Assembly (NCBI GenBank): GCA_021648085.1
Contig: JAKITS010000001.1
Span: forward strand, 452,948-516,947
DNA: 64,000 nt
Direction: 5' to 3'
Source: Candidatus Magasanikiibacteriota bacterium
GTDB lineage: Bacteria > Patescibacteriota > Patescibacteriia > Magasanikbacterales > UBA922
Part shown: positions 6,832 to 64,000 of the stretch, piece by piece
Layout of the letters: each line of letters begins with the position of its first letter
Position numbering within the stretch: the stretch's first letter is position 1
The notes under the pieces: model-generated
What the model saw: only the letters and a program-made list of their open reading frames with translations
The model's database searches: none
Told to the model about the DNA's origin: nothing
Made by a program: the position numbers and the translations under genes

Positions 6832-6860
6832 ACAAAAACCCGCATTTCGCGGGTTTTTTT
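6832..6860. terminator. bidirectional Rho-independent terminator (A-run/hairpin/T-run)
   Basis: aaaaa-cccgc-atttc-gcggg-ttttttt lies immediately 3' of both recR (+) and the giant surface protein gene (-). It is also part of duplicated segment copy 1. Confidence 0.65.
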
Positions 6861-6866
6861 ATGTTT

Positions 6867-12248: not shown

Positions 12249-12337
12249 ATATAAAAATCTCTATTAATCTTTTAATTATATCTTTTAATTACAATAATAT
12301 CAAATTGGGAATTGTGAATAAAAAATTATTAAAAATA

Positions 12338-12364
12338 AAAAAAGACGCTCAGCGTCTTTTTTTT
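12338..12364. terminator. Rho-independent terminator of rplU (hairpin gacgc-tca-gcgtc flanked by A- and T-runs)
   Basis: aaaaaaagacgctcagcgtctttttttt, 12 nt 3' of the rplU stop. This is the last element inside duplication copy 1. Confidence 0.6.
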
Positions 12365-12377
12365 AACTGAAATATTT

Positions 12378-20950: not shown

Positions 20951-20984
20951 AATTTTTTTAATGAGGCAAACCTCTTTGTGGTGT

Positions 20985-21223
20985 CAATCCTAATTTGAGT
21001 GATATAACCTATTGGTTAGTATTTTTTCAAACTAGTGAAAGAGCAAACGCTCAAATTAGGATTGGGGGCTATCACCAAATATTATTTTGTTGGCTAAATC
21101 TTCAAATTTTGAGCGGGACGAAAAGAAAAAATCTTTGCCCTGCCATAGCATCGGAAATATTTTTTCTTAAAGTCGCAGTCAAAATTTGAAGATTTAGGTA
21201 GAAATAGTGTTTGGTGATAGCCC
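20985..21223. other. two adjacent long imperfect palindromes (hairpin 1: 20985-21064 with 16/17-bp stem; hairpin 2: 21066-21223, ~70-bp imperfect arms incl. perfect 13-bp ggctatcaccaaa/tttggtgatagcc) - candidate structured RNA / regulatory element in mraZ leader
   Basis: Seen directly. caatcctaatttgagtg…cgctcaaattaggattg; ggctatcaccaaat…ggctaaatcttcaaattttgagcgg… mirrored by …cgcagtcaaaatttgaagatttaggtag…atttggtgatagcc. The two track ORFs here (20995-21189 + and 21102-21299 -) give mirror-image peptides, as expected for a palindrome. Confidence 0.6.
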
Positions 21224-21350
21224 TATAGTAGGAAGACAAGCATTTTCCCCACTTCTCACCACTTATATCCATTATATACCACTTCCGCACATTTCTCAAC
21301 CATACTTATCCACAGGGTAGAAAATCATGATGCACGATACAGATAACATG

Positions 21351-21557
21351 AGGCAAAAAACACACATCATCCTGAGCGAAATGGAGCAAAGCGGAATGCA
21401 GTCGAATGCCTGCCGGCAGGCAGGGATCTTGAAATAGTTTCACTAAATTAAGAATTAACAAAGAATAAAAAAGACGGGCTAAAGTTTTATTTTAATTATT
21501 TATACTTTGATTATGTTGTACGGGGATCCGTTCGACTCCACTTCGTTTCGCTCAGGA
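21351..21557. repeat. MITE-like element: 21-bp terminal inverted repeats cacacRtcatcctgagcgaaa flanking AT-rich core
   Basis: Left end cacacatcatcctgagcgaaa (21351-21371); right end tttcgctcaggatgacgtgtg (21537-21557). Also contains the perfect 14-bp palindrome gcctgccggcaggc. Confidence 0.6.
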
Positions 21558-21565
21558 TGACGTGT

Positions 21566-21652
21566 GTTAATTTATCATTCTCAGCTTGACTTAGGAATCC
21601 AGAATCTCCAAATAAGAACATTGATTCAAACCTTAAAACCACAATCAAGTTG
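21566..21652. repeat. MITE-like element (~87 bp) with TIRs tcattcYcaRcttgaYt, related to elements at 27399-27424 and 29639-29729
   Basis: atcattctcagcttgacttaggaatcc … caatcaagttgggaatgac (rc gtcattcccaacttgattg). Confidence 0.55.
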
Positions 21653-21682
21653 GGAATGACAAAAAAGGAACACAGGACATTC

Positions 21683-21716
21683 TACAAAAAATAAAAAAAA
21701 CCGTTAGTTTTACCTA
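21683..21716. terminator. bidirectional terminator (A8-ccgttag-ttttac-ctaacgg-ctttt), probably the uvrC terminator
   Basis: Perfect 7-bp stem with an 8-A run on the plus strand (U-run on the minus strand). Confidence 0.5.
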
Positions 21717-21951
21717 ACGGCTTTTAAAAAACCGATGTCTTTTTTCAAAAAAAGTATATGGAATTTTGCTCAATAAAAAAAATAGAAATAAACCAGGTAA
21801 AAATCCTACGACAAATAGAACACTCCCCCTTCACCCCTAAAGCCTTAAATTTTGTAGCCATTACTTCCTCCTTTAGGAAAAGTATTGAAAAATGAACTAA
21901 AAACTACTAACTCAGAATTATATCCTATTTTACTCCTTTTGTCAGCCTTTT

Positions 21952-27219: not shown

Positions 27220-27424
27220 ATCATATTGAGCGGAGTGAAACGGAGTTGAAAACCCAATGCACGTCATATTGAGTGGAGTGAAACGGAGTCGAAATATCTC
27301 GATTTAATTTCATTAGAACTTTGAATATTTTATGTTTTGGTGATGATACTGTCCCGAGATCCTTCGGCTTCGCTCAGGATGACGTGTGGGATTTTTGTCA
27401 TCCCCAACTTGATTGGGGATCCCC
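27220..27424. repeat. cluster of MITE-like repeats: partial copy 27220-27262, full ~130-bp element 27260-27390 (cacgtcatattgagYggagtgaaacggagtcgaaatatctcg … cgagatccttcggcttcgctcaggatgacgtgtg), solo gtcatccccaacttgattggggatcc 27399-27424
   Basis: Same termini (cacgtcat..tgagcg / cgctcaggatgacgtg) as the elements at 21351-21557 and 29740-29873. Confidence 0.6.
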
Positions 27425-29638: not shown

Positions 29639-29939
29639 CACGTCATATTGAGCTTGACTGGGGATCCAGGGTTTATATCACAGTTCTATTTTGTATACTC
29701 TGGATTCCCAGTCAAGCTGAGAATGACAGAAAACTTTTTCATGTCATATTGAGCGGAGTGAAACGGAGTCGAAATATCTTGGGACTATATCATTAGAACT
29801 TTGAATATTCAGTCTTCTAATGTTTTTGTTTCGAGATTCTTCGGCTGTCGCTCAGGATGGCGTGATAGAAAGGTGATATTGTCTCGAGATCCATTCTACT
29901 TCATTCCACTTTGCCTCATTCCGCTCAGGATGACATGTG
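29639..29939. repeat. cluster of three MITE-like repeats: 29639-29729 (~91 bp, TIR cacgtcatattgagcttgactggggatcc / ggattcccagtcaagctgagaatgacag), 29740-29873 (~134 bp, near-identical to 27260-27390 element), partial 29883-29939
   Basis: Direct sequence comparison. These fill the whole uvrB-rnj intergenic region. Confidence 0.6.
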
Positions 29940-30011
29940 TTGAATTTTCTTATTTTCTTTTTTTACTTTTTAATTTATAAACTTTTTAACTTCCTTTCTC
30001 TATCTAATCTG

Positions 30012-46815: not shown

Positions 46816-49800
46816 AAAAAACCCGCATTTCGCGGGTTTTTTATGTTTTTATTTTAACTCTTTTCCTATTTCGTATTCTTCATCATTTTTTATCGTCACT
46901 ATTCTATCCCACCTAAAATTCAATCTACTAAAGGCTTCCTCGTTTTTAATATGTCTTTTTACTTGTTTTGTCTGGTCTGTTAGGTCTGGCTCTAGCCTAA
47001 ATACTTCTGGGTTATTTTCATATTTAACAAGTGTGTAGTTTGGATGGCGATTTGTATAATCTATTATCTCACCAATTGTGTATTTATTGAGAAGTCTTGG
47101 GTCAATATCTTCTATCCAATTCCAACTATAGTTTAGTTTATTAAATACTTCTTCAGAGTCTATCCAATATTTTTGATTACCAAGAAGTAGGTACACCATT
47201 GGATCTGTTGTAATTTTTACAAGAGCACCATATTTTGGATCATATTTTGGACCCCAAGGCATAAAACCTAAAGTGTCATCTTCTACTGTTTCTAGTCTTT
47301 TCTCTTCTACTATCTCCACATTATTCCAAGAGTCAAAGTATGTGTAGAAAACATCTGCCCTACTAAAAGCTCTTTTTTTACAGTCTGGTGTAACAAGATA
47401 TACGGCAGAAGAGTTTGGTGTTTTATATACTCCACCTTCTTTTAGACTGCAGTCTGAACCTTGTTTTTCTGTTTGAGTATCAGTCTCAGTTTCTGTATTT
47501 AACTCATTTAACAGAATTGTGTCAAAATATGTTGATGCTGTTCCACCGCTTGAAAGAAATTTAGAATAAACAGTTTTTTCTCCATTTCCAGAAGGCAGTT
47601 TCCAGTTTAATTTTGAGGTAAATGGTGTAAATACTGAACCAGCAAAATCTTTTGAATTTGAAACTGCCATTCTATCTGCATCTAATATGTTAAAAGTTAT
47701 AGTTACATCTCTTGACTCTGTTGTATAAGCTCCATAATTTATTACAACTGGATTAGAAATTTCTGATTCATCTGTTAAATTTATTAGATTAATTTTCACA
47801 GAATCATAATTTAAAAACTCTGCATACTCTATTTCCAAATCTAAAACTCCATCTTTGTTTGTGTCTACTTTTTGACTCACACCCTTTATTAGGTTCAATA
47901 TAATTGGGTCTGACTCAATTGTTACCGTAATACTCTCTTTTGCTATTCTAGAGACAAACACACTATGAAAAGAAGCTCCAACTTCTGCAGATTTTTCTTC
48001 TTGCAGGAAAAACTCTGTAAATAATAATCCTGACGATACACTTTCCGTAGCTGGAGTTTTGGATGGAGTTGGTGGTGGTGCAAAGAATCCACCGCCGGTA
48101 GACGCAACATCGTCATCTGTAATAGTTGCGGTTACACTTGCGATAGTTAAGCTGTCAAAGTTAGAGTCTGAGCTTGCAGATGTGTTTGAGATTATAGTTG
48201 TAGTCTCGCCATCAACCTCGCTATCATCTGTAGCTGTGACTGTCACAGTTTGTTCTGTATCCCAATTTGCATTTGTAAAGGTGAGGTCAGAGGAAGAAAG
48301 ACTAACTTCTGAGTTTGATAGTGCGGCTGACACAGTTACATCGTCCGTAGGTTGTGCGTCTAAAACCGCAGTGTATGTGTCAGTTGTTGACCCTTCTGTC
48401 ACAGAAACAGACGAAAGAGAGATTGTAACTCCTGCTGTATCATTGTTTGTAATTGTATATGTGTAAGTTGTAGTAGAACCTAGCGAACCTCCAACAGGGT
48501 TTGATATTGTTATTATTAGAGTTTCATCATTTTCAACCAAGTCATCATCTACTACAACCAAACTCAAAGAAGTTGTTGTGTTTCCATTTGTAATTGAAGC
48601 CGTTCCGCTAGAAAGTGTGTAATCTGTTCCACTTCCTGTTGCTGTTCCTCCTGTTATTGCATAATCTACTGAGACATCACTTACTACACTTTGATCTGAA
48701 GAAATTAAGACAGAGACTGCTGTTGTTCCCTCATCTCCAGAAGCTGTGGTTGCAGAAAAATTAATCTCATAATCAAACTGCCAACGAGTATTATTTCCAG
48801 AATCACTACAACCGGTTGTACATACTATTTGTGTACTACTTAAGTTATTATTATCTTTTACATCTAGATATTGTGCGCTCGTTGTACTTTTTGGATCAAA
48901 CTTTGTCTGTGTTCCAGAGCTACTACTTCTTAGGCTCAAAAGATTTCCAGATGTTCCTGCCAAAGTTAGAGTTCCATTTACTGTTGTGGTCGTACTAGCT
49001 GGAAGTGTAAAAGTGTTTGCAGATGAGTCTGTTTTAGTTAGGTTATAAAAAGTATTTGCACCAGAAATTGTCTGGCTTGCGCCAACAAAGTCTACCGTAC
49101 TTGAGTTTGGTGTAAGTGTACCTCCTGTGTTTAGGAAGTCTCCTGTTATATTTAATGTTCCAGTTGCTGAATATATTCCAGATGCCAAAGTTATATCATT
49201 ATTTATATTTGTTGTTGCAACACTCGGAGCCAAACTATCTCCAGAATCTGTAAAATTTATAGAAATATCATAAAAATCCACAATAGAAGTAGAATAAGCA
49301 TCTGAACTTGCATCACCATTTCCAACATATTCTACTGTTCCTGAATCTGTGTCATTTGTAAGTGTTACAGTCTCACCTCCTTGAATACGAAGTGTTCCAT
49401 CGTTGCTAAATGTACTTGAAACAGTTAAATTATTTCCATTTAATGCGACTGTTCCAGAGCTAATTGTCATTGTGCTTGTAGCTACCGTACTCGTATTGAA
49501 TGTATATGTTCCACCTCCTGTGAAAGAAACATCATAAAAAGTTGAAAAACTTGGAAGAGTGTATGAACTAGCTCCATAAAATATAGCTGAACTTCCAGAG
49601 CTAAAACTAGGATAAGTTGCGTTTGTTGTAACAGTCTCACCACCTTGCATTTTTAAAATTCCACCATCTTGTACCACTACTGTTCCAGAAGATCCATTTA
49701 CTATTAAAGTATTTCCGTTTAGGTCTAAGGTTCCTTCTATTATGTTTAAATCTGTATTCGCATAATCCATTGTTAAACCAGAATTTAATGTGACAGTTCC

Positions 49801-52357
49801 TGATGATTTATTTATGTTTATATCTGAATTTATTTTATCTTCCACTCCTGTTAAATCTATTGTCTGATCTTGGGTTCCCGTTAGGTTGAATGTGGCCACA
49901 TCTAAATTGTCAAATGTGCTGGCCATTGAAAAGTTTGTTCCAGTAAATTCTAATATATTACCAGGCATCCTACCATCAATAAGATTTAAAGTAGAAGAAA
50001 CTACTAATGTATCTCCTGAAGCAATAGTGACTGTTTGACCACTATCTCCTTCTATTGTTAAGTTTGTAAAAGTAAAAGTTGTTGGTACATCTATAGTTGC
50101 TGATGTTGAATGAGTATAATATAATGTAGTTCCATTTTCATAAACAGTAGCACCAGCTCCAATAGTAAGATTGTAAACAAGACTTGTTGTTCCGGTTGGG
50201 AATGTAAAAGTTCCGCCTGTAATAAAAAGACCCTCGTAAATATATGTGATTGAAAGATCACCTGTTCCACCATCGAAAGTACCTCCAGAAACTATTAAAG
50301 CCCTATAACTTTCCATTAATGCACTTTGCATATTGAAAGTTCCACCAGAGATATTTATAGCATAGGAGTTAAAATCCAAATAGTTTGAATTTTGAGCATC
50401 AAAAGTTCCTCCTGTCATTGTAAAAGCACCGTTAAACACAATGTCAGTAGAACTTGCGTTTATTGTTCCAGCTTCTAAATTTAAAGTACTTTCAAAAGTA
50501 GTAGAAGCTACACCAGAAAATTCTATTGTTGTATTCGTTGCGTTTAGTGTAAATTTAGGCATATCGACATCTGCTGGAATTATTATATTCCTTGTGTCTG
50601 TTCCTGTTATTTTGAGAAGTCCTGTTCCACCATCAAATGTAGTGGCCATAGAAAATCCACTTCCAGGACCTATAAATTCAAAAGTACCTGAACCATCCAA
50701 AGCACCATCAACTAAATTTAAAGTAGAAGAAACTACTAATGTATCTCCTGAAGCCATGCTCACTGTTTGATTAGTACTTCCATCAATTATAAAGTTTGTA
50801 AAAGTAAAAGTTGTTGGTACATCTATAGTTGCTGATATTGAATGAGTATAATATAATGTAGTTCCATTTTCATAAACAGTAGCAGTTGCACCAATTGTTA
50901 AATTTCTTTTTAAAGTTGTTGTTCCTGTTGGGAATGTAAAAGTTCCTCCTGAAATTGTAAGATTTGCATATGTATATTGAATTGTAAGATTTCCTGTTCC
51001 ACCATCGAAAGTTCCTCCAGAAACTGTTAAAGTGTTATAACTTTCCATTAATGCACTTTGTAAACTAAAAATACCACCTGATATAGTGGTAGAGCCATTA
51101 ATATCCAAATAATTTGAGTTTTGTGCATCAAAAGTTCCTCCTGTCATTATAATAGATTTAAAGCTTATATCCGTAGAGCTTGCATTTATAGTACCAGCAT
51201 CCAAATATAAATAACCTTCAAAAGTTGTAGACGCTACTCCAGAAAATTCTATTGTTGTGTTTACTGCGTCCAATCTAAGTAAAGGAAGCTTAACATTTGC
51301 ATCAAGTATAATATTTCTTGTTTCTACTCCTGATATCTTAAGCTGTCCAGATGATGCAGAAGATCCGCCATCAAATGTTGTAGCCAAAGAAAAACCACTC
51401 CCAGGACCTGTAAATTCTAAAACTCCAGTGCCATCTAGCTCTCCGTCTATAAGCGTAAGAGTGGAAGAGACTATTACAGTGTCACCAGTATAAATAGCTA
51501 ACCGCTGACCGCTTCCACCAGCAATTGTAAGGTTTGTAAAAGTAAAAGTTGTTGGAACATTTAAAACAGCACTAGTTATAAAAGTCATTATCAAATTTGT
51601 GCCATTTTCATATACAGTAGCACCAGCTCCAATAGTTAAATCGTCTGTAATAGTTGTTGTTCCGGTTGGGAATGTAAAAGTTCCACCTGAAATTGTAAGA
51701 TCTGCATAACTATACTGGAATATCATAGTTCCTGTTCCACCATCGAAAGTACCTCCTGAGAAAACGAAATTATTATATGGTTCGAATACTGAAGATTGCA
51801 TATTAAATGTACCTCCTGAAATTGTAGTAGATCCATTAATATCAATAATCGTATCCCCTGCATTAAATGTGCCATCAGCTTGTGTAAAATTTCCAGTAGT
51901 AAGCGTAACACCTGTTGCAACAGTAATAGTCCCAGAATAACCAGCATCTATTTGAAAAGTTGTAACAGTAGAATCAACATCAATAGTTGCATTGTCCACA
52001 TCTCCACCATCAAAAATAGCTGTGTCTCCAGAAACAGGATGAGTAGTATCATTTGCCCCACCGGTTGTGGTGGACCAATTTGTGTCAGCAGAAAAATTTC
52101 CTCCAGAAGTTCCTATCCAATATTTGGTGGCTGCTTGTGACGCCGTAGGAATTAGTGAAAAAAATAAAAATAAAAAAATAAAAAAGAATAATTTTCTATA
52201 CAAAAAATTATTTTTAGGTTTAGCTATCATATATAAAAATAAATAAAAATCTCTATTAATCTTTTAATTATATCTTTTAATTACAATAATATCAAATTGG
52301 GAATTGTGAATAAAAAATTATTAAAAACAAAAAAAGACGCTCAGCGTCTTTTTTTTA
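46816..52357. repeat. segmental duplication copy 2 (~5.54 kb) of 6834-12364
   Basis: Same as copy 1. Includes a second copy of the rplU-type terminator hairpin (52336-52357) although no rplU is nearby. Confidence 0.9.
46849..52230 (-). CDS. giant secreted repeat protein, paralog 2 (1793 aa; 2 aa substitutions vs copy 1)
   Basis: Identical architecture to 6867-12248. The differences I could find are I66V and I70T plus synonymous changes. Confidence 0.85.
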   Translation of the reverse strand: MIAKPKNNFLYRKLFFFIFLFLFFSLIPTASQAATKYWIGTSGGNFSADTNWSTTTGGANDTTHPVSGDTAIFDGGDVDNATIDVDSTVTTFQIDAGYSGTITVATGVTLTTGNFTQADGTFNAGDTIIDINGSTTISGGTFNMQSSVFEPYNNFVFSGGTFDGGTGTMIFQYSYADLTISGGTFTFPTGTTTITDDLTIGAGATVYENGTNLIMTFITSAVLNVPTTFTFTNLTIAGGSGQRLAIYTGDTVIVSSTLTLIDGELDGTGVLEFTGPGSGFSLATTFDGGSSASSGQLKISGVETRNIILDANVKLPLLRLDAVNTTIEFSGVASTTFEGYLYLDAGTINASSTDISFKSIIMTGGTFDAQNSNYLDINGSTTISGGIFSLQSALMESYNTLTVSGGTFDGGTGNLTIQYTYANLTISGGTFTFPTGTTTLKRNLTIGATATVYENGTTLYYTHSISATIDVPTTFTFTNFIIDGSTNQTVSMASGDTLVVSSTLNLVDGALDGSGTFEFIGPGSGFSMATTFDGGTGLLKITGTDTRNIIIPADVDMPKFTLNATNTTIEFSGVASTTFESTLNLEAGTINASSTDIVFNGAFTMTGGTFDAQNSNYLDFNSYAINISGGTFNMQSALMESYRALIVSGGTFDGGTGDLSITYIYEGLFITGGTFTFPTGTTSLVYNLTIGAGATVYENGTTLYYTHSTSATIDVPTTFTFTNLTIEGDSGQTVTIASGDTLVVSSTLNLIDGRMPGNILEFTGTNFSMASTFDNLDVATFNLTGTQDQTIDLTGVEDKINSDININKSSGTVTLNSGLTMDYANTDLNIIEGTLDLNGNTLIVNGSSGTVVVQDGGILKMQGGETVTTNATYPSFSSGSSAIFYGASSYTLPSFSTFYDVSFTGGGTYTFNTSTVATSTMTISSGTVALNGNNLTVSSTFSNDGTLRIQGGETVTLTNDTDSGTVEYVGNGDASSDAYSTSIVDFYDISINFTDSGDSLAPSVATTNINNDITLASGIYSATGTLNITGDFLNTGGTLTPNSSTVDFVGASQTISGANTFYNLTKTDSSANTFTLPASTTTTVNGTLTLAGTSGNLLSLRSSSSGTQTKFDPKSTTSAQYLDVKDNNNLSSTQIVCTTGCSDSGNNTRWQFDYEINFSATTASGDEGTTAVSVLISSDQSVVSDVSVDYAITGGTATGSGTDYTLSSGTASITNGNTTTSLSLVVVDDDLVENDETLIITISNPVGGSLGSTTTYTYTITNNDTAGVTISLSSVSVTEGSTTDTYTAVLDAQPTDDVTVSAALSNSEVSLSSSDLTFTNANWDTEQTVTVTATDDSEVDGETTTIISNTSASSDSNFDSLTIASVTATITDDDVASTGGGFFAPPPTPSKTPATESVSSGLLFTEFFLQEEKSAEVGASFHSVFVSRIAKESITVTIESDPIILNLIKGVSQKVDTNKDGVLDLEIEYAEFLNYDSVKINLINLTDESEISNPVVINYGAYTTESRDVTITFNILDADRMAVSNSKDFAGSVFTPFTSKLNWKLPSGNGEKTVYSKFLSSGGTASTYFDTILLNELNTETETDTQTEKQGSDCSLKEGGVYKTPNSSAVYLVTPDCKKRAFSRADVFYTYFDSWNNVEIVEEKRLETVEDDTLGFMPWGPKYDPKYGALVKITTDPMVYLLLGNQKYWIDSEEVFNKLNYSWNWIEDIDPRLLNKYTIGEIIDYTNRHPNYTLVKYENNPEVFRLEPDLTDQTKQVKRHIKNEEAFSRLNFRWDRIVTIKNDEEYEIGKELK

Positions 52358-56200: not shown

Positions 56201-57017
56201 AATATAAAATTAAAATTAAAGCACCCAATACAAATCTATAAATTGCAAAATCTTTGAAAGTTCTTTTTTGTATAAACCGCATCAAAAAGCAAATAGCAAA
56301 AAAACCACTTACAAATGCTGATATAAATCCTACAAAAAGATGAGAGACAGAAATGGTTTCTAAACTAGATTTGGTAATATCTAAAAAAGTCAAAAGCCCT
56401 GCGCCAAAAATTACAGGAATACTCATCAAAAAAGAAAAACTCGCCGCATCCTTCCTATTCATTCCTTTTAAAAGTCCCGCACTTATCGTAATTCCAGACC
56501 TGCTCGTACCTGGAATTAAAGCTATTGCTTGGGCAAAACCTATGAACAATGTATCTTTCCAGTTTAAGTCATTGTGTGTTTTTTGTGTTTTATGATGTCT
56601 GGATTTCCAATCTGCAAACCACAATACCCCACCCCAAAAAATAAGACCAAAAGCAACAACCAAAACAGATCTTAGACTATTTTCCACAAAATCTTTTATT
56701 AAAAAACCTACCAATACTGCTGGTAAAGTAGAAATAGCGAGCAGAAAAATAAACCTCCTTTCTTCTTTGTTATCTTCTGTTTTTCCAAAAATAGAAAATA
56801 ACAATGATAAAAGTTTTTTACGAAAATAAAATACAACAGCTAGTAAACTTCCTAAATGCAGGACAACATCGAAAAACAACCCCTGATCAGACCAGTTAAG
56901 CCAATTAGAGAGTAATATTAGATGTCCTGAAGATGAAATTGGCAAAAATTCAGCAACACCTTGCAGTATTCCTAAAAAAAATGCCTGAAAAAATGTAGTC
57001 ATAAAATCTAAAACCAC
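56193..57017 (-). CDS. uppP: undecaprenyl-diphosphatase UppP/BacA
   Basis: Motifs …LPISSSGHLIL… and …IPGTSRSGITI…. Confidence 0.9.
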   Translation of the reverse strand: MVLDFMTTFFQAFFLGILQGVAEFLPISSSGHLILLSNWLNWSDQGLFFDVVLHLGSLLAVVFYFRKKLLSLLFSIFGKTEDNKEERRFIFLLAISTLPAVLVGFLIKDFVENSLRSVLVVAFGLIFWGGVLWFADWKSRHHKTQKTHNDLNWKDTLFIGFAQAIALIPGTSRSGITISAGLLKGMNRKDAASFSFLMSIPVIFGAGLLTFLDITKSSLETISVSHLFVGFISAFVSGFFAICFLMRFIQKRTFKDFAIYRFVLGALILILYFV

Positions 57018-58150
57018 TTTAAAATACTATAGACAATACCACCAGAAAGAGTTAAAAGAAGTATTATAATTAAAAATAAGACATGATGCAACTTAAATCT
57101 ACCAGTTTTAAGATCTCCGAGTTGTTTTGCACGCCAATAAATCAACAAAACCAAAAGCATTTGTGAACTCAAAAATACACCTCCTATTACATCTATTGTC
57201 TGAATAAACCCCCTTATTCCAGCCAAAAATAATATAATTGGTAATACGGAGACAATAATGGAAGCTAGTAATTTAGGCATTTTAAAATCCCACATAAACG
57301 AATCTTTGAGAGCAAGACCGGTAAGCAAAAAACTATTTCCCATAGCAGTAACCGCAAAAACATTACCCAAAATCAACATTATTGGACCAACTTTATACCC
57401 CAAACCAATTGTTGCAATTTCTGTAGTGTCTGCACCAGTCACACCCACTACCACAAGAGTAAAAAGAGAGTAAATCAAGATATTTATTAATCCTGCTAAA
57501 ATTATAGATTTTTTAAAAATTCTTTTATCTCCTTTTATAATACTCTTTGCTTCTGGAATTGTAGCTAAACCACTATAAGCAAAAAGTAGCACACCGTAAG
57601 GCACAAATAAAAACTTCCAATTTACATATACTAAATTTTGAACTTCAAAATGAGAAAAATTTAAAAAAACTATTAAAACTACAATTAAAATTAAACCCAA
57701 ACTTGTAATAAGTTCAACTTTTTTAATAACGCCCATTCCAACAAAAATTAAAGCTGTTGCAAAAACAAAAAATAAAATACTCCAAATAAAAATACTACCA
57801 CCAAACAAAGTTGCAAGAGCTTGCCCTTCTCCTATTATATATACAACTAGCACCCCAAAAGCCATAGAATAAACCAACGACATCATTAAAAATTCACCAA
57901 ATCTTCCCAAATACTTTCGTGCCAAACCAACGAGTTGTAAATTAGTTTTCAACTTAGACAAAACCTCTCCAATTAAAAGATTTAACCCTGTCATAAGCAC
58001 ACCAAACACAACTATATAGACTAGACCAACCATAAGACCAACTTTTGCAACAACAAAAGGTATCCCCAAAACTCCAGCACCAACAGTACCACTAACTATC
58101 AAAGCCGTGGACTCATACAGGTTTAGTTGTTTTCTATTTTTATCTTTCAT
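57008..58150 (-). CDS. amino-acid transporter-like permease (APC/AAAP-type, ~11 TM)
   Basis: MKDKNRKQLNLYESTALIVSGTVGAGVLGIPF resembles the N-terminus of Trp/Tyr and other amino-acid permeases. Start chosen at the internal MKDKNRK; the ORF extends to 58189. Confidence 0.55.
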   Translation of the reverse strand: MKDKNRKQLNLYESTALIVSGTVGAGVLGIPFVVAKVGLMVGLVYIVVFGVLMTGLNLLIGEVLSKLKTNLQLVGLARKYLGRFGEFLMMSLVYSMAFGVLVVYIIGEGQALATLFGGSIFIWSILFFVFATALIFVGMGVIKKVELITSLGLILIVVLIVFLNFSHFEVQNLVYVNWKFLFVPYGVLLFAYSGLATIPEAKSIIKGDKRIFKKSIILAGLINILIYSLFTLVVVGVTGADTTEIATIGLGYKVGPIMLILGNVFAVTAMGNSFLLTGLALKDSFMWDFKMPKLLASIIVSVLPIILFLAGIRGFIQTIDVIGGVFLSSQMLLVLLIYWRAKQLGDLKTGRFKLHHVLFLIIILLLTLSGGIVYSILKWF

Positions 58151-58213
58151 ATTTACTCTTAAATTATAACACAAAAAAAACAAACGCAACCTACGCTTGT
58201 TTTTTGTTTTTAC

Positions 58214-58849: not shown

Positions 58850-59365
58850 CTAACGAGTTAAAGTAATCTCTGTTGTGTTCTCATCTTCACAAGCTCTAAT
58901 AGTTACAGACCCATTTGCAGCTTTTGCAATAGTGTATCCTGTGTTTGCAGCTGACCATGTTGCGGTACCATCAGGACTTATAGGAATAGATCCTAAATAA
59001 CCATCTGTCACAAGTCCGGTTAAGTCTGCACAAGCATCTTGAGTTGGTTCTGTTGTACAAAGATAATTTGTTACTGTGGTTGTTGCTCCAGTAGTACAAG
59101 TACCGACCATATAAACCTCGGAAGCTGTCGCACTAGTAATACTAGCTAGGTACGGACCTTTATTATCCACCTGGTCAACCTTAATTGCGGTCAAAATATT
59201 ATTTACATCCGAGAACCTTCTTGAATCACGAGCGTCTGCAAACCTAGTTGCAGGATCTAACGCTACAAAAATTAAAAGAGCCAAAATCGCAATAATTGCG
59301 ATTACCAAAAGCAATTCGATTAAAGTGAAACCTTTTGCTTTTGCCAAAGTTTTTTTCATTTGCAT
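58850..59365 (-). CDS. type IV pilin-like protein, paralog of 58214-58729
   Basis: MQMKKTLAKAKGFTLIELLLVIAIIAILALLIFVAL. Same N-terminal 40 aa as its neighbour but a divergent C-terminal domain. Confidence 0.8.
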   Translation of the reverse strand: MQMKKTLAKAKGFTLIELLLVIAIIAILALLIFVALDPATRFADARDSRRFSDVNNILTAIKVDQVDNKGPYLASITSATASEVYMVGTCTTGATTTVTNYLCTTEPTQDACADLTGLVTDGYLGSIPISPDGTATWSAANTGYTIAKAANGSVTIRACEDENTTEITLTR

Positions 59366-59684
59366 ATGCTATGAATTATATAAATAATAATTAATAAATA
59401 ATCTTACGAATTTAATTATACCATATTTATTAATTTTTTTTATATTAGACTTGTGTATAACTTACAAATTCTCCTCGTATAGATGCATTTCTAGACTATT
59501 AAAATAAACTGATTTTTTAGTATGTTTTTATATTATAATTGTGCATTTCATAAACATAGATAATACATATAATTTATAAAATTTTATTTATAAGTTCTAT
59601 TCAAGAAACTATCAAAAAAATATCCTGTTGGATATTTTTGTACACTCCAAAAGAATCTCACTACTCACCTCTTCGGGTTGCGCT

Positions 59685-59824
59685 CCTAAGAACCTTCAGG
59701 TTCTTAGGAAAACCTCCTCTACAAGTAGGGGAAAGTTTTCCCCTACCACCCCTTAGTTCGAATCCCTTGGCGTCAAAAAAATACCATTTCAGGTATTTTG
59801 TTTGTACACGCCAAGGGATTCGAA
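59685..59824. other. hairpin-rich non-coding element with inverted 17-bp tRNA T-arm/acceptor-like repeats (ttcgaatcccttggcgt / acgccaagggattcgaa); degenerate tRNA-derived sequence or att-like site
   Basis: Perfect hairpins cctaagaacc-ttca-ggttcttagg (59685-59708), gtagggg-N8-cccctac (59725-59746) and aaatacc-N5-ggtattt (59779-59799). GGTTCGAATCC-like T-loop strings occur in both orientations. No cloverleaf can be completed (see rejected). Confidence 0.35.
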
Positions 59825-59972
59825 CCCGAATATGCAGGTTTTGAAATGTCACTTAACCTAGCAAAATTGCTAAAATAAGCGAAATTTACGACTTCGCTAA
59901 AATCTCAATTTTCGCTGAAAAACGACAAAAACTGAATTTTTGGGCAGATTTTGGGCAGATTGATCTCAAAAC

Positions 59973-60003
59973 AAAACACCACTCTATTTTGAAGTGGTGT
60001 TTT
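59973..60003 (-). terminator. terminator for 60039-60578 gene (aacaccact…agtggtgtt + A/T runs)
   Basis: Perfect 9-bp stem with a U-run on the minus strand. Confidence 0.5.
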
Positions 60004-60038
60004 GTTTTTGTTTGAATATCGAGATAGCTTCCGAGCTT

Positions 60039-60578
60039 TTATTTTGTGATTTGTTTAAAACTTTCAAGCATTGTTTTTGCAAATTCTTTTGGATTTTCTA
60101 CTTCTCTACTAATATTAAACTCAAAATATTCATTTGTGTTTTCTGGAGTAAAGATTAGAATTGTACCTAAACCATGTGTAATTACTGAAGCGTTCCATGC
60201 AAGATCTTCTTTTTCTTCTACAAGAACAGGATCTCCTTTGTGGTAATCTTCAAACTTTTCAAACACACCAGCGTTATAAGAATCTACATGGAAAATAAAC
60301 ACACCTCTTTTATCATCTTTTTCAAAGTAAATACTATCTCCGACAGGTCCACCCTCAGAATATAACTTCACGTCATTTCTTTCTTCTTTAAATTCAAAAT
60401 TCTTAGGAATGTTTACAGTAAACCCAATTTTGTTATTTGTGTATTCACCATTATCAACTACCACGTCATTTGGCACTTCATCCATTTGTTGGTTATCCAA
60501 AGAATTGAAGTATAGAAAACCTCCAACAGCAGTTACAGCCACAATAAATGCAATAATAATTTTTATTTTTTTATTCAT
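60039..60578 (-). CDS. hypothetical secreted/membrane-anchored protein (179 aa)
   Basis: N-terminal hydrophobic anchor KIKIIIAFIVAVTAVGGFLYF. No recognisable motif. Confidence 0.5.
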   Translation of the reverse strand: MNKKIKIIIAFIVAVTAVGGFLYFNSLDNQQMDEVPNDVVVDNGEYTNNKIGFTVNIPKNFEFKEERNDVKLYSEGGPVGDSIYFEKDDKRGVFIFHVDSYNAGVFEKFEDYHKGDPVLVEEKEDLAWNASVITHGLGTILIFTPENTNEYFEFNISREVENPKEFAKTMLESFKQITK

Positions 60579-60669
60579 AATTTTTTATTAGTTTCATAAT
60601 TTGTTAAAAGATACACTAAAGCATAAAAAAAGTCAACAAAAAACCCGCCTTTTTAAGACCGGTTACAGT

Positions 60670-61583
60670 TTAGTAAGGTACATTTATGGGTACATAATCT
60701 AAATATTCCCAATCATCATCGTCATCATCTATAGTATCAACGTAAACATCTGCTTGGTATGTTCCTGCTTGACTTAGATGTAAAGAATGCCATGTATACC
60801 CATGCTCCCAAACATAAGGGCTGACGGAATTCCATCCAGAAGTTTGGGTCGCATATACTTCGTCATTACGGTAAAAAATTGTCTTAAATCTATGTTCTTC
60901 TCGGATATTATGAATACCTGATAAAACATAAACTGTTTGACCTGTATAATAAGTATATGTTTCTGTTGTACAAGAGTAAACCCAGTTTGTTGATGAGCTT
61001 CCAGTTATACCTCTACAGGCTTTGGTACTCCAATCACTTTCCAACTGCCTATATTCATTAAAAACATATTCGTTTTCAGTTGTGGAGCCTAGTCTATACA
61101 CGTGAAGGTATAAAGTTGAATAAGTGTCCATCCAAGAATCTATATCCCAGTCATGCACACCAACCGTATTGCTAGAAACAAAATTAGCATCTACTACTCT
61201 GATAACGCCACTACCAAGGTCTTCCAAAAAAAAATGGCTGTGTGCATGCCTGTTACAAAAGTCGTGTTATTATATGCACTACAAGATTCATAACCTGAAG
61301 ATGTATTAATTTGAATCACATCGCCTAGTTGGGCGTTTGTAATTCCACCAGACACTTCAGAACCAAGATCAAGATAAGCTTGGCAATATCCTGTACCAAG
61401 AGTAGCACCTAATTCTTGGTTGATTACTTGTTGAACAAACCCCTTACACTCAAAAGGGTAAACATTTTCAGTGTCATAGCTAAGAGCAGTGCCAGCTAAT
61501 TCATCATTGGTAAAAGCATATACACTTGAAACACAAAAAAACATAACACAAAATAAAATAAAGATTTGTGCGTACTTTCTCAT
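60670..61583 (-). pseudogene. secreted protein gene split by frameshift at T9 homopolymer (coding strand) - pseudogene or phase-variable gene
   Basis: ORFs 61194-61583 (signal peptide MRKYAQIFILFCVMFFCVSSVYA…) and 60670-61227 overlap at A9/T9 (61226-61234). Adding one T joins them in frame (…TGMHTAIFFLEDLGSGVIRVVDANF…) to give a ~305-aa protein. Confidence 0.6.
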
Positions 61584-61746
61584 TTTCTCTCTCCTCTGCT
61601 CGGTTTTGGGTTGTTGTGAAGGAACATTTTTTCCGAGCGTTGGCAGCAGTTTAAACTATTTTTTATTAGTTGTCAAGTCTTTTTTAACAAATAGTATTTT
61701 TTTGTTTTTAATTTATAAGAATTCTATTTGAATTATTTAATACATT

Positions 61747-62337
61747 TTATTTTAAAGGCAATTCAATTGTACGTAAACTTAAATTTTTATCATTACACTC
61801 TGTGCCTAATTTCAAACTGTCTGGATTTTTTACACATTCACTTTCTAAGAAAACTGCCTTTGTTCCATCATTTGAGATTATGATAAGTTTACCTCTGGTT
61901 GGCAATTCTTCTGTCTTTCTAGTGTTAAAATCTAAATGATAATTGAAAAATGGCCCATTATTTAATTTGGAATCTTTTGGCCATTGCCAAGCAGATCCAA
62001 TTAAAGTATTTTCAGTTAAAGATGTAAGAATAGGATCAATATGCCTAGTATAAAACCCTAGAGAATCTTTTATTTCATTATTTTTCATAATTCTAGTCCA
62101 ACCTACATCTCCTTCCTTACCAAACCCTATATGATCAAAGGTAAATATGTTTTTATTATCATCTAACGTTGAGGTACACGGCACATTTTTACTATTCATC
62201 CAGTCCAACAAGCGATTTAATTGACGATTTGTTTCAATAAATTTACGCTGAATAAAATAATTGTATGAAAGGGCTATAAAAAATACTAATATTATTGCTG
62301 ATATAACTACTACTTTTTGTTTTTTGTTGTTTAACAT
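61747..62337 (-). CDS. hypothetical membrane-anchored protein (196 aa), third gene of accessory operon
   Basis: N-terminal TM VVVISAIILVFFIALSYNYFI. 1-nt gap from the upstream gene. Confidence 0.5.
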   Translation of the reverse strand: MLNNKKQKVVVISAIILVFFIALSYNYFIQRKFIETNRQLNRLLDWMNSKNVPCTSTLDDNKNIFTFDHIGFGKEGDVGWTRIMKNNEIKDSLGFYTRHIDPILTSLTENTLIGSAWQWPKDSKLNNGPFFNYHLDFNTRKTEELPTRGKLIIISNDGTKAVFLESECVKNPDSLKLGTECNDKNLSLRTIELPLK

Positions 62338-62338
62338 A

Positions 62339-62833
62339 TTAAAATAATTTTTTATTTAATTTTGTAATAGAAGAAATTTTTTCAATTAAAGTATTATGTA
62401 TTATTACAGGAATTTCTTTTTCACCTAAATGAAAAGCTACTATTGTTCTATGGCGTCCATCATTAAAAGAAATATTAGGTAAATTATTTATGAAAATTTC
62501 TGGTGGATCAATAAATCCCCCATCACCCCAATGTTCTAACAATTTTGCGATTCTAAAATCACGTTCGTCGATACCATTAAATAATATATCGGGTTTTAAC
62601 TTTGTATGACCCATTTCTCCAAAATCTGCTTTATTGATTAATTCTTTTGTATTTACAAGATATATAGAATAATCTTTTAAACCAATAAGCTTGTAATACT
62701 TAGATAAATATTTTTTATTAGTCCCATAAGCCCACTTAACAATGATTTTATTAATTTCAAATAAACTTTTATTTTTATATGAATCAATATAATTTATGAT
62801 TTCTTTTGACAACTTCACTTTTGTGTTTTGCAT
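62339..62833 (-). CDS. ParB/sulfiredoxin-like nuclease-domain protein (164 aa)
   Basis: C-terminal motif FNDGRHRTIVAFHLGEKEIPVIIHN matches the ParB N-terminal domain signature (DGxHRxxAxxxLGxxxIPVxI). No parA nearby. Confidence 0.55.
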   Translation of the reverse strand: MQNTKVKLSKEIINYIDSYKNKSLFEINKIIVKWAYGTNKKYLSKYYKLIGLKDYSIYLVNTKELINKADFGEMGHTKLKPDILFNGIDERDFRIAKLLEHWGDGGFIDPPEIFINNLPNISFNDGRHRTIVAFHLGEKEIPVIIHNTLIEKISSITKLNKKLF

Positions 62834-62870
62834 ACAAAAATAACAATAAAATCTTTTTGACTAATTTTAG

Positions 62871-63710
62871 TTAAATTTTTTCATAATTGGAAAAATAATT
62901 TAATAAATTATTTTCTTCATCTTCTTTAATTAATTTTATACAAATTAAATTTTTAACGGCTCTTGAACAGGCAACATAAAACAATTTCTGATTTTTAAGT
63001 TTTTTCTCTAATTCTTCATCGCTAAAAATAATTTGAAAATCATATTGATTCCAAAAAAATTCGTCTAAGACAATCATTACATTTTCAATTTCTCCACCTT
63101 TTGTTTTATGCATGGTTATATATTCAGATTTGATATTTTCATCTATATATTCTTGATAATTAATAATTTCTTTAAAAGACACCTTTTTATTTTTAAATAA
63201 ATCAAAATAAAATAGTTCCTTGTTATATTTTCGCAAAAATTCATTAAATAATTCTTTATCAACTTTCATTTGTTTTGCTGTTGTGTTACCGCTTTTATAA
63301 GAAGTTTTACGATCATGATAATCTTTATCTATACTTAATTCTCTTAAAAATTCATCTTTATTCTCAATGTAATAATTATAAGAACTAGTTTTTTTTACAA
63401 ACTTATTTTCAAAAGCTTTTCCAACTGCTTTTATACAATCTATTTCACCTATAATCAATTCATTAAAAAAATTGGACACTGTTTCTTGATCTTCGATTTT
63501 TATTAACTTGAATCCTGACTTATTTATTGTTGTTAATACTTTATTATAATTTCTATTTTTAAAATCAATACATAATTTAGCTAAGTCATTAATGCCTAGT
63601 CTATCAAAATCTTTTTTTATAAGTTCATTAATTTCCCAGGTTCTTAAGCTATACAAATTATATAAATTACTAAAACCTAATTCATTCGCAATAGATTTAT
63701 TAGTAAGCAT
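62871..63710 (-). CDS. protein with UvrD/PcrA-helicase C-terminal-like domain (motifs V-VI) and novel N-terminal region (279 aa)
   Basis: TMHKTKGGEIENVMIVLDEF (motif V-like TxHKSKGLEFxxVxL) and LFYVACSRAVKNLICI (motif VI-like LLYVAxTRAKxxL). No Walker A/B in the N-terminal 200 aa. Confidence 0.5.
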   Translation of the reverse strand: MLTNKSIANELGFSNLYNLYSLRTWEINELIKKDFDRLGINDLAKLCIDFKNRNYNKVLTTINKSGFKLIKIEDQETVSNFFNELIIGEIDCIKAVGKAFENKFVKKTSSYNYYIENKDEFLRELSIDKDYHDRKTSYKSGNTTAKQMKVDKELFNEFLRKYNKELFYFDLFKNKKVSFKEIINYQEYIDENIKSEYITMHKTKGGEIENVMIVLDEFFWNQYDFQIIFSDEELEKKLKNQKLFYVACSRAVKNLICIKLIKEDEENNLLNYFSNYEKI

Positions 63711-63952
63711 TAATTTTGTATATTTCTGCTCTTCTCTATCTTCGGCTTTTTTTATTAGTTCAGATAACTTTAATAAATATTGATCTTTTTCTTCCTGAGG
63801 ACTAAAAACGTTAGGTTTATTTTTACTATAAATTGAATAATATAATTTAACAATTCCTTTTCTATCATCTACAGTCTGTCCATCTTTTAACGCAACTTTT
63901 TGTTTTTATTTATGCTAGTCATGAAAGTCGCTGTATTCTTTAGATTTTAAAT

Positions 63953-64000
63953 ATGATTACCATAATTACAGGAAAACCTGGAGCTGGAAAAACCTTGTTC
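63953..64000 (+). CDS. partial CDS (N-terminus): P-loop NTPase, Walker A GKPGAGKT; continues past window end
   Basis: ATG at 63953 followed by MITIITGKPGAGKTLF. Divergent from the accessory operon. Confidence 0.45.
   Translation, partial: MITIITGKPGAGKTLF

Follow-up and report, generated by a model that had tools for sequence, protein, structure and literature searches.

What does the hairpin-dense, non-coding spacer between the pilin genes and the accessory genes of this Candidatus Magasanikbacteria genome represent: the eroded boundary of acquired DNA, marked by remnants of tRNA-derived attachment (att) sites, or the gene of a structured small RNA (sRNA)? A preliminary description of the window (the entire 64-kb stretch of DNA analyzed here) had offered both explanations. 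Our analyses favor the former: we estimate a probability of roughly 80% that repeated site-specific integration at a tRNA-Val(UAC) gene has left a composite scar here. The region comprises att-site and tRNA remnants at the edge of an island with a Gabija gene fragment, and as such is a known kind of feature and not a new RNA gene.

Composition of the spacer

The hairpins, the tandem repeat, and the inverted repeat given in the preliminary description were all located where it had placed them, far above chance, and one further 10-bp hairpin was added (T3; Table 1). A 411-nt stretch proved much more stably folded than its shuffled versions (z = -11.0, plus strand; z = -13.3, minus strand). The region is indeed non-coding: the only open reading frames (ORFs) overlapping the spacer, of 42 to 68 amino acids (aa), are generated by the palindromes and were rejected as genes because they are by-products of these, and the NCBI locus tags, which rise in steps of 5 (permease, L3J07_02535; 179-aa gene, L3J07_02550; with 02540 and 02545 assigned to the two pilins), suggest that the annotation has no gene in the interval from the pilin to the 179-aa gene. 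In line with the preliminary description, it holds no intact tRNA gene: ARAGORN found no tRNA or tmRNA gene in the whole 64-kb window. No model of Rfam release 15 matched the window at its gathering threshold. At E < 10, the best matches were to miRNA or IS128 models (25 to 26 bits versus thresholds of 80 to 86), with no tRNA, tmRNA, YrlA, or rtT match.

Read on the minus strand, the accessory genes are followed by a block X, the 3'-terminal 23 nt of tRNA-Val, hairpin T2, a segment B, a decayed tRNA copy with hairpin T3, an AT-rich spacer, and the putative pilin promoter. Within X, the TGGGCAGA repeats and hairpin T1 belong to what is left of the 3' end of an integrase gene, which precedes ~75 nt of element end; B consists of an inverted copy of the tRNA end (a') and then two palindromes (H2 and H1). 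The predicted promoter element, TGGTATAAT, recurs upstream of the pilin gene in the relatives L002 and L012, and as TGGTATACT in L001, and would mark the return of conserved core sequence.

Table 1. Features of the region in minus-strand order; positions are those of the window.
Feature	Position	Strand	Remarks
Accessory block upstream of X, probable cargo of integrated DNA	60039-63710	-	Five ORFs plus part of GajB
Block X, conserved end of integrated element	59828-60013	-	Abuts tRNA fragment; twice in L005
Relic of tyrosine-integrase gene 3' end and its hairpin	59904-60003	+	Envelope of profile match; contains TTTTGGGCAGA x2 and T1 (59968-60008)
Hairpin T1	59968-59983/59993-60008		16 bp, perfect
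Tandem repeat TTTTGGGCAGA x2	59938-59959		
Hairpin inside X	59878-59898	-	AGCGAA/TTCGCT
tRNA-Val(UAC) gene 3' fragment, att core remnant	59801-59827	-	tRNA positions 51-73 plus trailer
T2, terminator-like hairpin natively after tRNA-Val	59775-59802 (arms 59775-59785/59792-59802)	.	AAATACC/GGTATTT; A-run on one side, T-run on the other
Segment missing in closest relatives	59464-59775	.	a', H2, H1, a'', T3, and 150-nt AT-rich spacer
Inverted copy a' (T-loop, T-stem 3' strand, and acceptor 3' strand of tRNA-Val)	59756-59773	+	Perfect
Palindromes H1 (59684-59709) and H2 (59725-59746), body of segment B	59684-59746	.	Core CCTACTTGnnGnGGAnnTTTTCC between them
Hairpin H2	59725-59734/59737-59746		10 bp, perfect
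Hairpin H1	59684-59695/59698-59709		12 bp, perfect
Decayed second tRNA-Val 3' half (a'', 59676->59637) and terminator copy T3 (hairpin 59616-59639)	59609-59676	-	
Hairpin T3	59616-59625/59630-59639		10 bp, perfect; absent from the preliminary description
Putative extended -10 element TGGTATAAT of pilin gene (58850-59365)	59415-59423	-	

The tRNA-Val fragment at the synteny break

The arms of the inverted repeat had been likened to the T-loop and 3' acceptor strand of a tRNA, which can now be identified as the 3' end of tRNA-Val(UAC). The minus-strand fragment comprises part of the T-stem, the T-loop TTCGAAT, the acceptor 3' strand, the discriminator A (59805), and a 4-nt trailer, CAAA; the tRNA's 5' 50 nt are missing. 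From 59827 to 59801, all 27 positions agree with the terminus of the intact tRNA-Val of L011, and the match to the tRNA-Val ends in L013 to L015 is 31 of 32. In six metagenome contigs, intact tRNA-Val(tac) genes end in the 18-mer TCCCTTGGCGTGTACAAA, and ARAGORN placed tRNA-Val(tac) at the matching places in L006, L010, L011, L013 to L015, L023, L025, and L027. Intact parental genes with this T-arm and acceptor are hence present in relatives, and the proposed tRNA origin stands. As expected of an att remnant, the match begins at the canonical crossover place (T-stem/T-loop) and runs to the tRNA end.

The inverted repeat is perfect over 18 bp (59756-59773/59808-59825). Its 17-mer has two occurrences only in the 64 kb, even when 3 mismatches are tolerated; 0.10 occurrences were expected from 100 shuffles, none of which had at least two matches. 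Only the minus-strand arm is the original tRNA end; the 18-mer on the plus strand is its inverted mirror copy, on the other side of the tRNA's own terminator hairpin. Together with 59794-59825, a' forms a ~70-bp quasi-palindrome centered on the loop of T2. L010 has an imperfect counterpart downstream of its intact tRNA-Val and T2; there, the sequence of a' is GGACTCGAACC, which matches that tRNA's GAGT T-loop.

The T2 hairpin is also found after the tRNA end or fragment in L001, L002, L005, L010, and L012, in L010 after the intact tRNA-Val, and T1-like hairpins follow integrase genes. T2 would thus appear to be the tRNA's own terminator and looks usable in both directions. Stem-loops with T-runs are visible at T1, T2, and T3, suggesting that all three may act as terminators, yet a consensus terminator scan did not list them, probably because their stems hold too few G-C pairs.

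The fragment sits exactly where synteny with relatives ends, i.e., at the border between conserved chromosome and variable DNA, in agreement with the location at the edge of an acquired block suggested previously. On the left side, L001, L002, and L012 have the pilins, permease, BacA, GpsA, and CCA-adding enzyme in collinear order (76 to 79% nucleotide identity); on the right side, the cargo upstream of X differs between the window, L012, and L005. In the window, the five accessory ORFs gave no Pfam match, and the 179-aa protein had one distant homolog, in an unrelated context. The GajB (Gabija) helicase is represented by its C-terminal part (62871-63710; E = 3.9e-79; profile positions 383-665 of 669). 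The GC content falls to 0.24 at 62-64 kb, and the island continues beyond position 64000, with no intact tRNA-Val in the 64-kb window. Exact look-ups with the window's pilin, 179-aa protein, and permease matched no contigs, a permease scan of the genome collection returned no relatives, and scans of viral collections gave chance coding matches only.

In relatives, elements with an excisionase and a tyrosine integrase occupy the 3' end of the intact tRNA-Val gene. In L025 and L027, an excisionase gene, an integrase gene, two copies of TGGGC(A/C)GA, a hairpin, and an intact tRNA-Val lie beside the permease, BacA, and CCA-adding enzyme. The same excisionase/integrase/tRNA-Val layout is found at a different locus in L006 and L023, where the ORF belongs to the Phage_integrase family (E = 1.6e-36). 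L010 and L023 are 96% identical until 6 nt beyond the tRNA and then diverge, as would be expected for an empty and an occupied site. Homologous integrases are located on tRNA-Glu in L028 and L029; a second direct repeat of the tRNA end was not found within 10 kb of these. The tRNA-Val of L025, L027, L013, and L015 is directed away from the permease and the window fragment towards it, so that a rearrangement must be assumed.

Block X, segment B, and the integrase-gene relic

The 3' ends of five integrase genes abutting tRNA genes were used to build a profile, and this matched X at 59925-59982 on the plus strand (E = 7e-6), its sole match in the 64 kb. The repeat and hairpin are found at the terminus of 5 of 5 integrase genes. 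The tandem repeat TTTTGGGCAGA x2 and the "terminal" hairpin noted previously are therefore present as described but have to be reread: by homology, they are the leftover of an integrase gene 3' end. Apart from this ~60-100-nt relic, no integrase homolog was found in the 64-kb window, and the tRNA similarity of the 90 nt upstream of T1 was not significant in the window, L012, or L005.

Across X, the tRNA fragment, and T2 (59774-60013), the window and L012 share 95% identity over 240 nt, compared to 76 to 79% between the window and relatives for the pilin/permease DNA flanking X. The X copies are 92.5 to 96.3% identical to each other, with the first ~110 nt almost invariant. The hairpin inside X has lost its pairing in L002 and in the second copy, X2, of L005 (ATCGAA...TTCTCT), indicating that its structure is not conserved. 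In L005, the two X copies lie on either side of HicA-containing cargo, which points to tandem remnants. X has the att core on one side only, and its tandem copies in L005 fit an accretion array. No homologs of the body of X or B were found at integrase-bearing loci, and no further copies of either were detected within the 64-kb window.

In L001, L002, L005, and L012, homology to the window from 59463 downwards begins ~24 nt after T2. The decayed copy a'' begins at the anticodon-stem 3' strand and aligns without gaps to tRNA-Val positions 38-78 (28/40 identical, equalled in 0 of 2,000 shuffles); the alignment runs on through the hairpin for ~70 nt with a score of 45, equalled in 0 of 5,000 shuffles. 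The rest of B had no significant similarity to the tRNA 5' half, and for this reason B was rejected as a full tRNA-Val pseudogene. The core CCTACTTGnnGnGGAnnTTTTCC is common to the window, L010, and L005; H1 differs from its L005 counterpart by one compensated pair (A-T to G-C), and H2 corresponds to a shorter hairpin in L010. The core pattern had no match in 185,579 species genomes, and the H1/H2 segment had none in Rfam.

Probable origin of the region and competing explanations

A lambda-type tyrosine-integrase pathway could have given rise to this arrangement. An element bearing a tRNA 3' segment would recombine inside the tRNA gene, with the crossover here at the T-loop; this would rebuild an intact tRNA at one element end and leave the displaced 3' fragment at the other, beside the original downstream DNA. 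Remnants would then pile up (tandem accretion) as the rebuilt gene received new insertions and older elements suffered internal deletions. We infer the order of these events, and also that an intact tRNA-Val lies past position 64000, on the minus strand, with the repeat TTCGAATCCCTTGGCGTGTA. The scar is supported directly by the identity of the fragments, by the synteny break, by integrase elements that occupy the intact gene of relatives, and by the homology between X and the 3' ends of integrase genes.

The perfect inverted 18-mer would most simply be a fold-back (template-switch) duplication centered on the T2 palindrome, with hairpin-directed correction possibly keeping it identical to its partner. 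Extension and correction of quasipalindromes by template switching at hairpins are known as Ripley-type mutations. As in these, an existing palindrome (T2) would have been extended by an exact inverted copy of its flank, to a ~70-bp near-perfect palindrome, although here the fold-back event is deduced from the sequence. The imperfect mirror in L010 makes the duplication old, so that continued homogenization must be assumed as well.

Alternatively, the integrase itself may have made the inverted 18-mer and B, by a wrong-orientation recombination placing tRNA ends tail-to-tail, B being the rump of such an element. We consider this rather unlikely. The palindromic T-loop TTCGAA as overlap would not fix the orientation, the outer edge of the inverted copy (between G and TTCGAA) lies within 1-2 nt of the X/fragment junction, the presumed crossover, and the tRNA 3' end with T2 and the decayed 3' half with T3 bracket B like att repeats around a mini-element. 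However, this route predicts head-to-head arms joined at TTCGAA, whereas those observed are tail-to-tail and mirrored about the T2 loop; moreover, the symmetry runs through the A/T runs and the T2 stem, as fits a fold-back duplication centered on T2.

The other explanation raised at the outset, structured sRNA genes, would have B (multi-hairpin and bounded by T2/T3), the ultra-conserved 110 nt of X (plus strand, with transcription running into T1), or both, expressed as RNA, the tRNA-like pieces being incidental. Consistent with this are the strong folding (z of -11 and -13 for the whole region and of -4.5 to -5.0 for B alone), the terminator-like hairpins on both sides of B, the compensated pair in H1 relative to L005 and the hairpin still formed by H2 in L010, the 95% conservation of X versus 78% in its flanks, and a TGcTAAAAT extended -10-like motif on the plus strand (59868-59876). 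This motif, however, is gone from both L005 copies of X, and no promoter motif conserved across copies was seen in the sequences read. B is missing from the closest relatives L001, L002, and L012, its core is without a match among the 185,579 species genomes, and the X-internal hairpin is not conserved. Perfect palindromes with 2-4-nt loops and no G-U pairs are more typical of DNA-level palindromes or recent duplication, the stems were compared across 2-3 homologs only, and Rfam gave no family at threshold and miRNA-type noise only at E < 10. On balance, sRNA genes appear improbable here.

Several observations count against the scar. The 64-kb window has neither an intact tRNA-Val nor an integrase homolog, the far end of the island lying outside it; L028 and L029 gave no second direct repeat within 10 kb; and the orientation of the fragment calls for a rearrangement. 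In addition, simple integration does not yield an inverted core copy, the conservation of X far exceeds that of its flanks, and the palindromes H1 and H2 show no mispairing and a single compensated change. Since plain decay does not predict the conservation of X or the perfect H1/H2, a retained function could exist, as protein-binding sites or as RNA. It is conceivable, but hardly probable, that a miniature integrative element of candidate phyla radiation (CPR) bacteria, integrase-less but maintained, is made up of X, the core, and T2 and perhaps also of B. In such an element, the near-invariant 110-nt relic (TGGGCAGA repeats plus hairpin) could provide putative arm-type binding sites or a gene-3'-end sRNA, the inverted core could be a second recombinase site or a hairpin restoring a duplex core in single-stranded DNA, and full-length elements of the same family would move it in trans.

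It is very unlikely that a miniature inverted-repeat transposable element (MITE) with no connection to tRNA integration accounts for B or X. The ends of B do pair with each other, the genome has other palindromic repeat families, and X is duplicated in L005, but B and X are single in the 64-kb window, every copy of X is a direct repeat linked to the tRNA core, tRNA-Val sequence makes up the "terminal repeats" of B, and no target-site duplication is visible.

A functional tRNA-like RNA, i.e., a permuted or two-piece tmRNA, a split tRNA, or a Y-RNA-like molecule with a T-arm, is effectively refuted by the negative models and by L002, L005, and L012, which read GCATTCGAGTCCC or GTATTCGAGTCCC in place of the T-arm. 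Its appeal lies in the minus-strand order of T-arm plus acceptor, hairpin, and GACGCC...GGATTCGAAC, which we take to be superficially like the permuted tmRNA order with the tmRNA 5' motif GGAUUCGAC. ARAGORN, which also covers permuted tmRNA genes, found neither a one-piece nor a permuted tmRNA nor a complete cloverleaf with an anticodon, and Rfam had no tmRNA, tRNA, or YrlA match at E < 10; the T-stem has 3 pairs only, the 18-bp complementarity would ruin a tRNA-like fold, and there is no tag reading frame. Analogies to a two-piece tmRNA, a permuted tRNA, a retron msr/msd, or a primer-binding site were rejected, having no model support, no reverse transcriptase, and an unconserved T-arm.

Read as an integration scar, the locus has close parallels among known systems. 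Fragments of tRNA genes are routine products of element integration (PMC9897764), and decay with later accretion at att sites has been described, along with the tandem accretion of ICESt1-related elements in Streptococcus thermophilus and their decay into cis-mobilizable elements (CIMEs) that lack an integrase (PMC5704250). For Dehalococcoides, one report describes genomic islands integrated at the tmRNA gene ssrA (PMC3146451). As in CIMEs and accretion arrays, serial att-core remnants with differing cargo occur at one site (in L005, two X copies and HicA) and the element is cut to its ends, X keeping the last ~100 nt of the integrase gene; unlike in CIMEs, one remnant is inverted and the elements are tiny (X, ~190 bp; B, ~165 bp).

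Reiter in 1989 and Williams in 2002 reportedly described tRNA gene fragments of the attR type flanking islands, prophages, and ICEs with tyrosine integrases. Such fragments, like the one studied here, hold the 3' segment from the T-loop through the acceptor end and lie at the border of core genes and variable cargo, with relatives that have integrase and excisionase on the intact gene. In contrast to these, the window shows no intact partner tRNA and no live integrase, there are three remnants, one of them inverted, and the host is a CPR bacterium. In the Escherichia coli tyrT operon, the rtT repeats, which lie downstream of the tRNA genes, each include the 3'-terminal ~19 nt of tRNA-Tyr. The tRNA 3' end is likewise reiterated just downstream of the tRNA gene here, but rtT repeats are direct and transcribed with the tRNA, and no Rfam rtT match was obtained.

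The scar fixes the right-hand boundary of an acquired island with a Gabija gene fragment in a near-complete Magasanikbacteria genome, and one tyrosine-integrase family uses tRNA-Val repeatedly, and in other contigs tRNA-Glu, in these reduced-genome bacteria. To our knowledge, the mobile elements of CPR bacteria have been thinly described. For annotators, the locus is a worked example of an "sRNA-like," hairpin-dense spacer that can be explained by tRNA fragments, a gene stub, and terminators. It is unusual in two respects only: the att core is also present as a perfect inverted copy, and the integrase-tail relic is conserved to an unexpectedly high degree.

tRNA-Val remnants at a synteny break

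The spacer between the pilin-like gene and the gene for the 179-aa protein L3J07_02550 is inferred to contain no annotated gene because locus tags step by 5, and its ORFs (42 to 68 aa) are generated by palindromes. The hairpins of the preliminary description were all present as described, and its tandem repeat was confirmed with an 11-nt unit; the inverted repeat, given as 17 bp, is perfect but actually 18 bp long. The 17-mer had no further match in the window with up to three mismatches allowed, two matches occurred in no shuffle, and the folding z-scores of the 411-nt core were -11 (plus strand) and -13 (minus strand), so that these features are confirmed and beyond chance. No part of the spacer has further copies elsewhere in the window.

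Coordinates of the features in the window
Feature	Position	Strand	Remarks
5.5-kb direct duplication	6834-12365, 46817-52357		99.66% identical
ORF-poor gap	20951-21951		1 kb
Quasi-palindrome in gap	21066-21223		160 bp, 77.5% self-complementary
Further copies of gap repeats	27369-27422, 29653-29941		
Permease gene	57008-58189		L3J07_02535; protein 100% identical to one of a Candidatus Magasanikbacteria MAG
Type IV pilin-like gene	58850-59365	minus	N_methyl motif
Spacer	59366-60038		
Pilin extended -10	59423->59415	minus	TGGTATAAT
Extra segment	59464-59775		312 nt
Older copy of tRNA 3' half	59676->59637	minus	
a', inverted 18-mer	59756-59773		
T2, fragment, and block X	59774-60013		240 nt
tRNA-Val fragment	59827->59801	minus	GGGTTCGAATCCCTTGGCGTGTA + CAAA
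18-mer in fragment	59808-59825		
Extended -10-like motif	59868-59876	plus	TGcTAAAAT
Integrase 3'-end match	59925-59982	plus	E = 7e-6
Tandem repeat	59938-59959		
179-aa gene	60039-60578	minus	no family match
GajB-like ORF	62871-63710	minus	profile 383-665 of 669, E = 3.9e-79
Region upstream of GajB-like ORF	63711-64000		290 nt, stops in all three frames

The likeness of the 17-mer to a tRNA T-loop and acceptor strand was borne out. The 18-mer that the window shares with its two closest relatives was found at 13 loci in a metagenome scan. In six of them (L006, L010, L011, and L013 to L015) it forms the 3' end of an intact tRNA-Val(UAC), GCACGCCTAGCTCAGTTGGTTAGAGCACCTCGTTTACACCGAGGGGGTCAGGGGTTCGAGTCCCTTGGCGTGTA, the kind of gene that the preliminary description had suggested seeking in relatives. 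The window fragment is identical to L011 at 27/27 positions and corresponds to tRNA positions 51 to 73, the sequence upstream of it having no tRNA similarity. That no intact tRNA is present here agrees with an ARAGORN tRNA/tmRNA search of the whole 64 kb, which found none. At the fragment's place, three relatives (L002, L005, and L012) read G(C/T)ATTCGAGTCCC, so the three pairs left of a "T-arm" in the window are not conserved. In L014 (150-245), a 5' tRNA-Val fragment with a 16-nt palindromic insert in the D-arm (GCACGCCTAGCTCA[TCCGCCAGCTGGCGGA]GGTTAGAGCACCTCGTTTACA) lies directly upstream of the intact tRNA-Val.

The fragment locus is a synteny break. Leftwards from the predicted pilin promoter, whose extended -10 is the gene's own and is conserved in relatives, L001, L002, and L012 share the window's gene order at 76 to 79% nucleotide identity (pilins, permease, then GpsA or BacA, CCA-adding enzyme, and YidC). 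Hairpin T2, the fragment, and block X, the conserved element end abutting the fragment, are together 95% identical to L012. Upstream of X the genes differ: five ORFs of no known family plus the C-terminal 280 aa of a GajB helicase in the window, 224-aa and 107-aa ORFs in L012, and, in L005, two X copies 1,454 bp apart on either side of a HicA toxin gene. GC content falls to 0.24 at 62 to 64 kb, and the island's other end lies beyond the window. The GajB (Gabija helicase) ORF corresponds to the C-terminal part of the protein alone and, given the stops upstream of it, may belong to a truncated or frameshifted gene. Between the L005 X copies (1893-2454), hicA is overlapped by an upstream 109-aa ORF which has no Pfam match and may encode the antitoxin.

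Segment B and the inverted tRNA end

The segment by which the window exceeds L001, L002, and L012 consists, in minus-strand order, of a', palindrome H2, a conserved core, palindrome H1 (a' to H1 being segment B), and a stretch that aligns ungapped with tRNA-Val positions 38 to 78 at 28/40 positions, a score reached by 0/2,000 shuffles. Once hairpin T3 is added, the alignment of this stretch with the tRNA and T2 spans about 70 nt (0/5,000 shuffles); the tRNA 3' half and its terminator are present here a second time, as an older copy. This arrangement recurs in L010, where the intact tRNA is followed by T2, an imperfect a', an H2-like hairpin, the core, and a hairpin resembling a terminator, and L005 starts within a B-like segment. 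The remainder of B has no tRNA similarity and no homologs in the integrase loci or in a 185,579-species genome collection; only two to four homologs of X and B were available for comparison.

There is a small chance that B or X acts as an sRNA, in favor of which the folds are strong, H1 contains one compensated pair, and X is conserved. Against it, there is no conserved promoter, B is absent from the nearest relatives, and Rfam gave no match at gathering thresholds, with only miRNA-type noise at E < 10. The tmRNA and tRNA-like RNA readings were rejected on the ARAGORN and Rfam results.

Both 18-mer arms, the A/T runs, and the T2 stem form a ~70-bp quasi-palindrome centered on the T2 loop. The L010 mirror is imperfect (about 27/33 positions, counted manually), and its a' (GGACTCGAACC) agrees with the GAGT T-loop of its own tRNA, as the window a' (GGATTCGAAC) does with GAAT; the inverted duplication is therefore old, and the arms co-vary. 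We infer that a' was copied by fold-back or template switching that started at the terminator palindrome, and that the two arms were later corrected against each other. In a rival account the integrase itself made the copy. The outer edge of a' does fall at the presumed crossover place in palindromic TTCGAA, but this account calls for head-to-head arms, and those observed lie tail to tail.

Integrases and an integrase-tail relic

Within ~95 nt after the intact tRNA-Val, L006 and L023 carry two copies of TCTGCCCAAAA and a convergent tyrosine recombinase of 384 to 401 aa (Phage_integrase family, E = 1.6e-36). L010 is 96% identical to L023 until 6 nt beyond the tRNA, past which it carries T2 and a B-like segment where L023 has the integrase; the two look like an empty/occupied site pair. 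L025 and L027 have an integrase and HTH_17 excisionase against tRNA-Val, beside permease, BacA, and CCA-adding enzyme genes, and L028 and L029 have homologous integrases against tRNA-Glu, all four integrases being 57 to 64% identical to that of L006. The tRNA-Glu genes (CTC and TTC) lie at L028 11209-11281 and L029 11179-11251, and their abutting integrases share 57 to 60% identity with the one associated with tRNA-Val. The stop codon of the L029 integrase overlaps the end of the tRNA, and the L028 element also holds a REP_ORF2-G2P-like replication gene.

The integrase gene 3' ends (5/5) contain TGGGC(A/C)GA twice and then a AAAACACA...TGTGTT hairpin. The repeat period differs, 11 nt in L023 and L025 versus about 12 nt in L027, L028, and L029 (manual count), so the repeat is a DNA feature rather than a protein constraint. 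A profile of these five ends has a sole match in the window, within X. The tandem repeat and "terminal terminator" of the preliminary description thus both exist, but as the stub of an integrase gene end; the window contains no remaining integrase homolog. Also inside X, the extended -10-like motif is directed at hairpin T1, with a predicted ~130-nt transcript spanning the relic; the motif is kept in L012 and lost from both L005 X copies.

Proposed history and other repeats

The locus, from a CPR bacterium, bears the classic marks of integration into a tRNA gene, with remnants in tandem. With tRNA-Val 3' fragments at the synteny break and integrases on the intact gene, the earlier suggestion of att-site or decayed-tRNA remnants at the edge of acquired DNA is supported. 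The fragment identities, synteny break, occupied and empty sites in relatives, and integrase-tail relic are observed; the steps between them follow the established tyrosine-integrase pathway and an accretion model (PMC9897764, PMC5704250). B would be left from an early event in which the tRNA 3' half was copied; later, elements of the L006-type integrase family would have inserted at the T-loop, one of them decaying to X, and newer cargo, from the 179-aa gene through GajB, would have stacked upstream of X. The working tRNA-Val should then lie beyond position 64000, and T1, T2, and T3 probably act as terminators insulating the pilin operon.

The tRNA core is also where contig L001 begins and where contig L026 stops; assembly breaks tend to fall at sequence repeated in a genome, and these ends lend the proposed history weak, indirect support. 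The perfect inverted core copy and near-invariant integrase-tail relic are unusual details, and there is a small residual chance that they mark a maintained miniature element. A MITE reading of B or X was rejected.

Elsewhere in the window, the copies of the 5.5-kb duplication lie about 40 kb apart, each with a 1,793-aa ORF containing internal ~1.1-kb repeats at 77% identity. The ORF-poor gap lies between genes that we take, from their translations read by eye, to be MraZ-like and UvrC-like. Its quasi-palindrome and repeats had no Rfam match; together with the further copies they look like a MITE-like family, and homologs of the quasi-palindrome lie directly upstream of the permease in L012 (3981-4141) and L002 (1457-1605).
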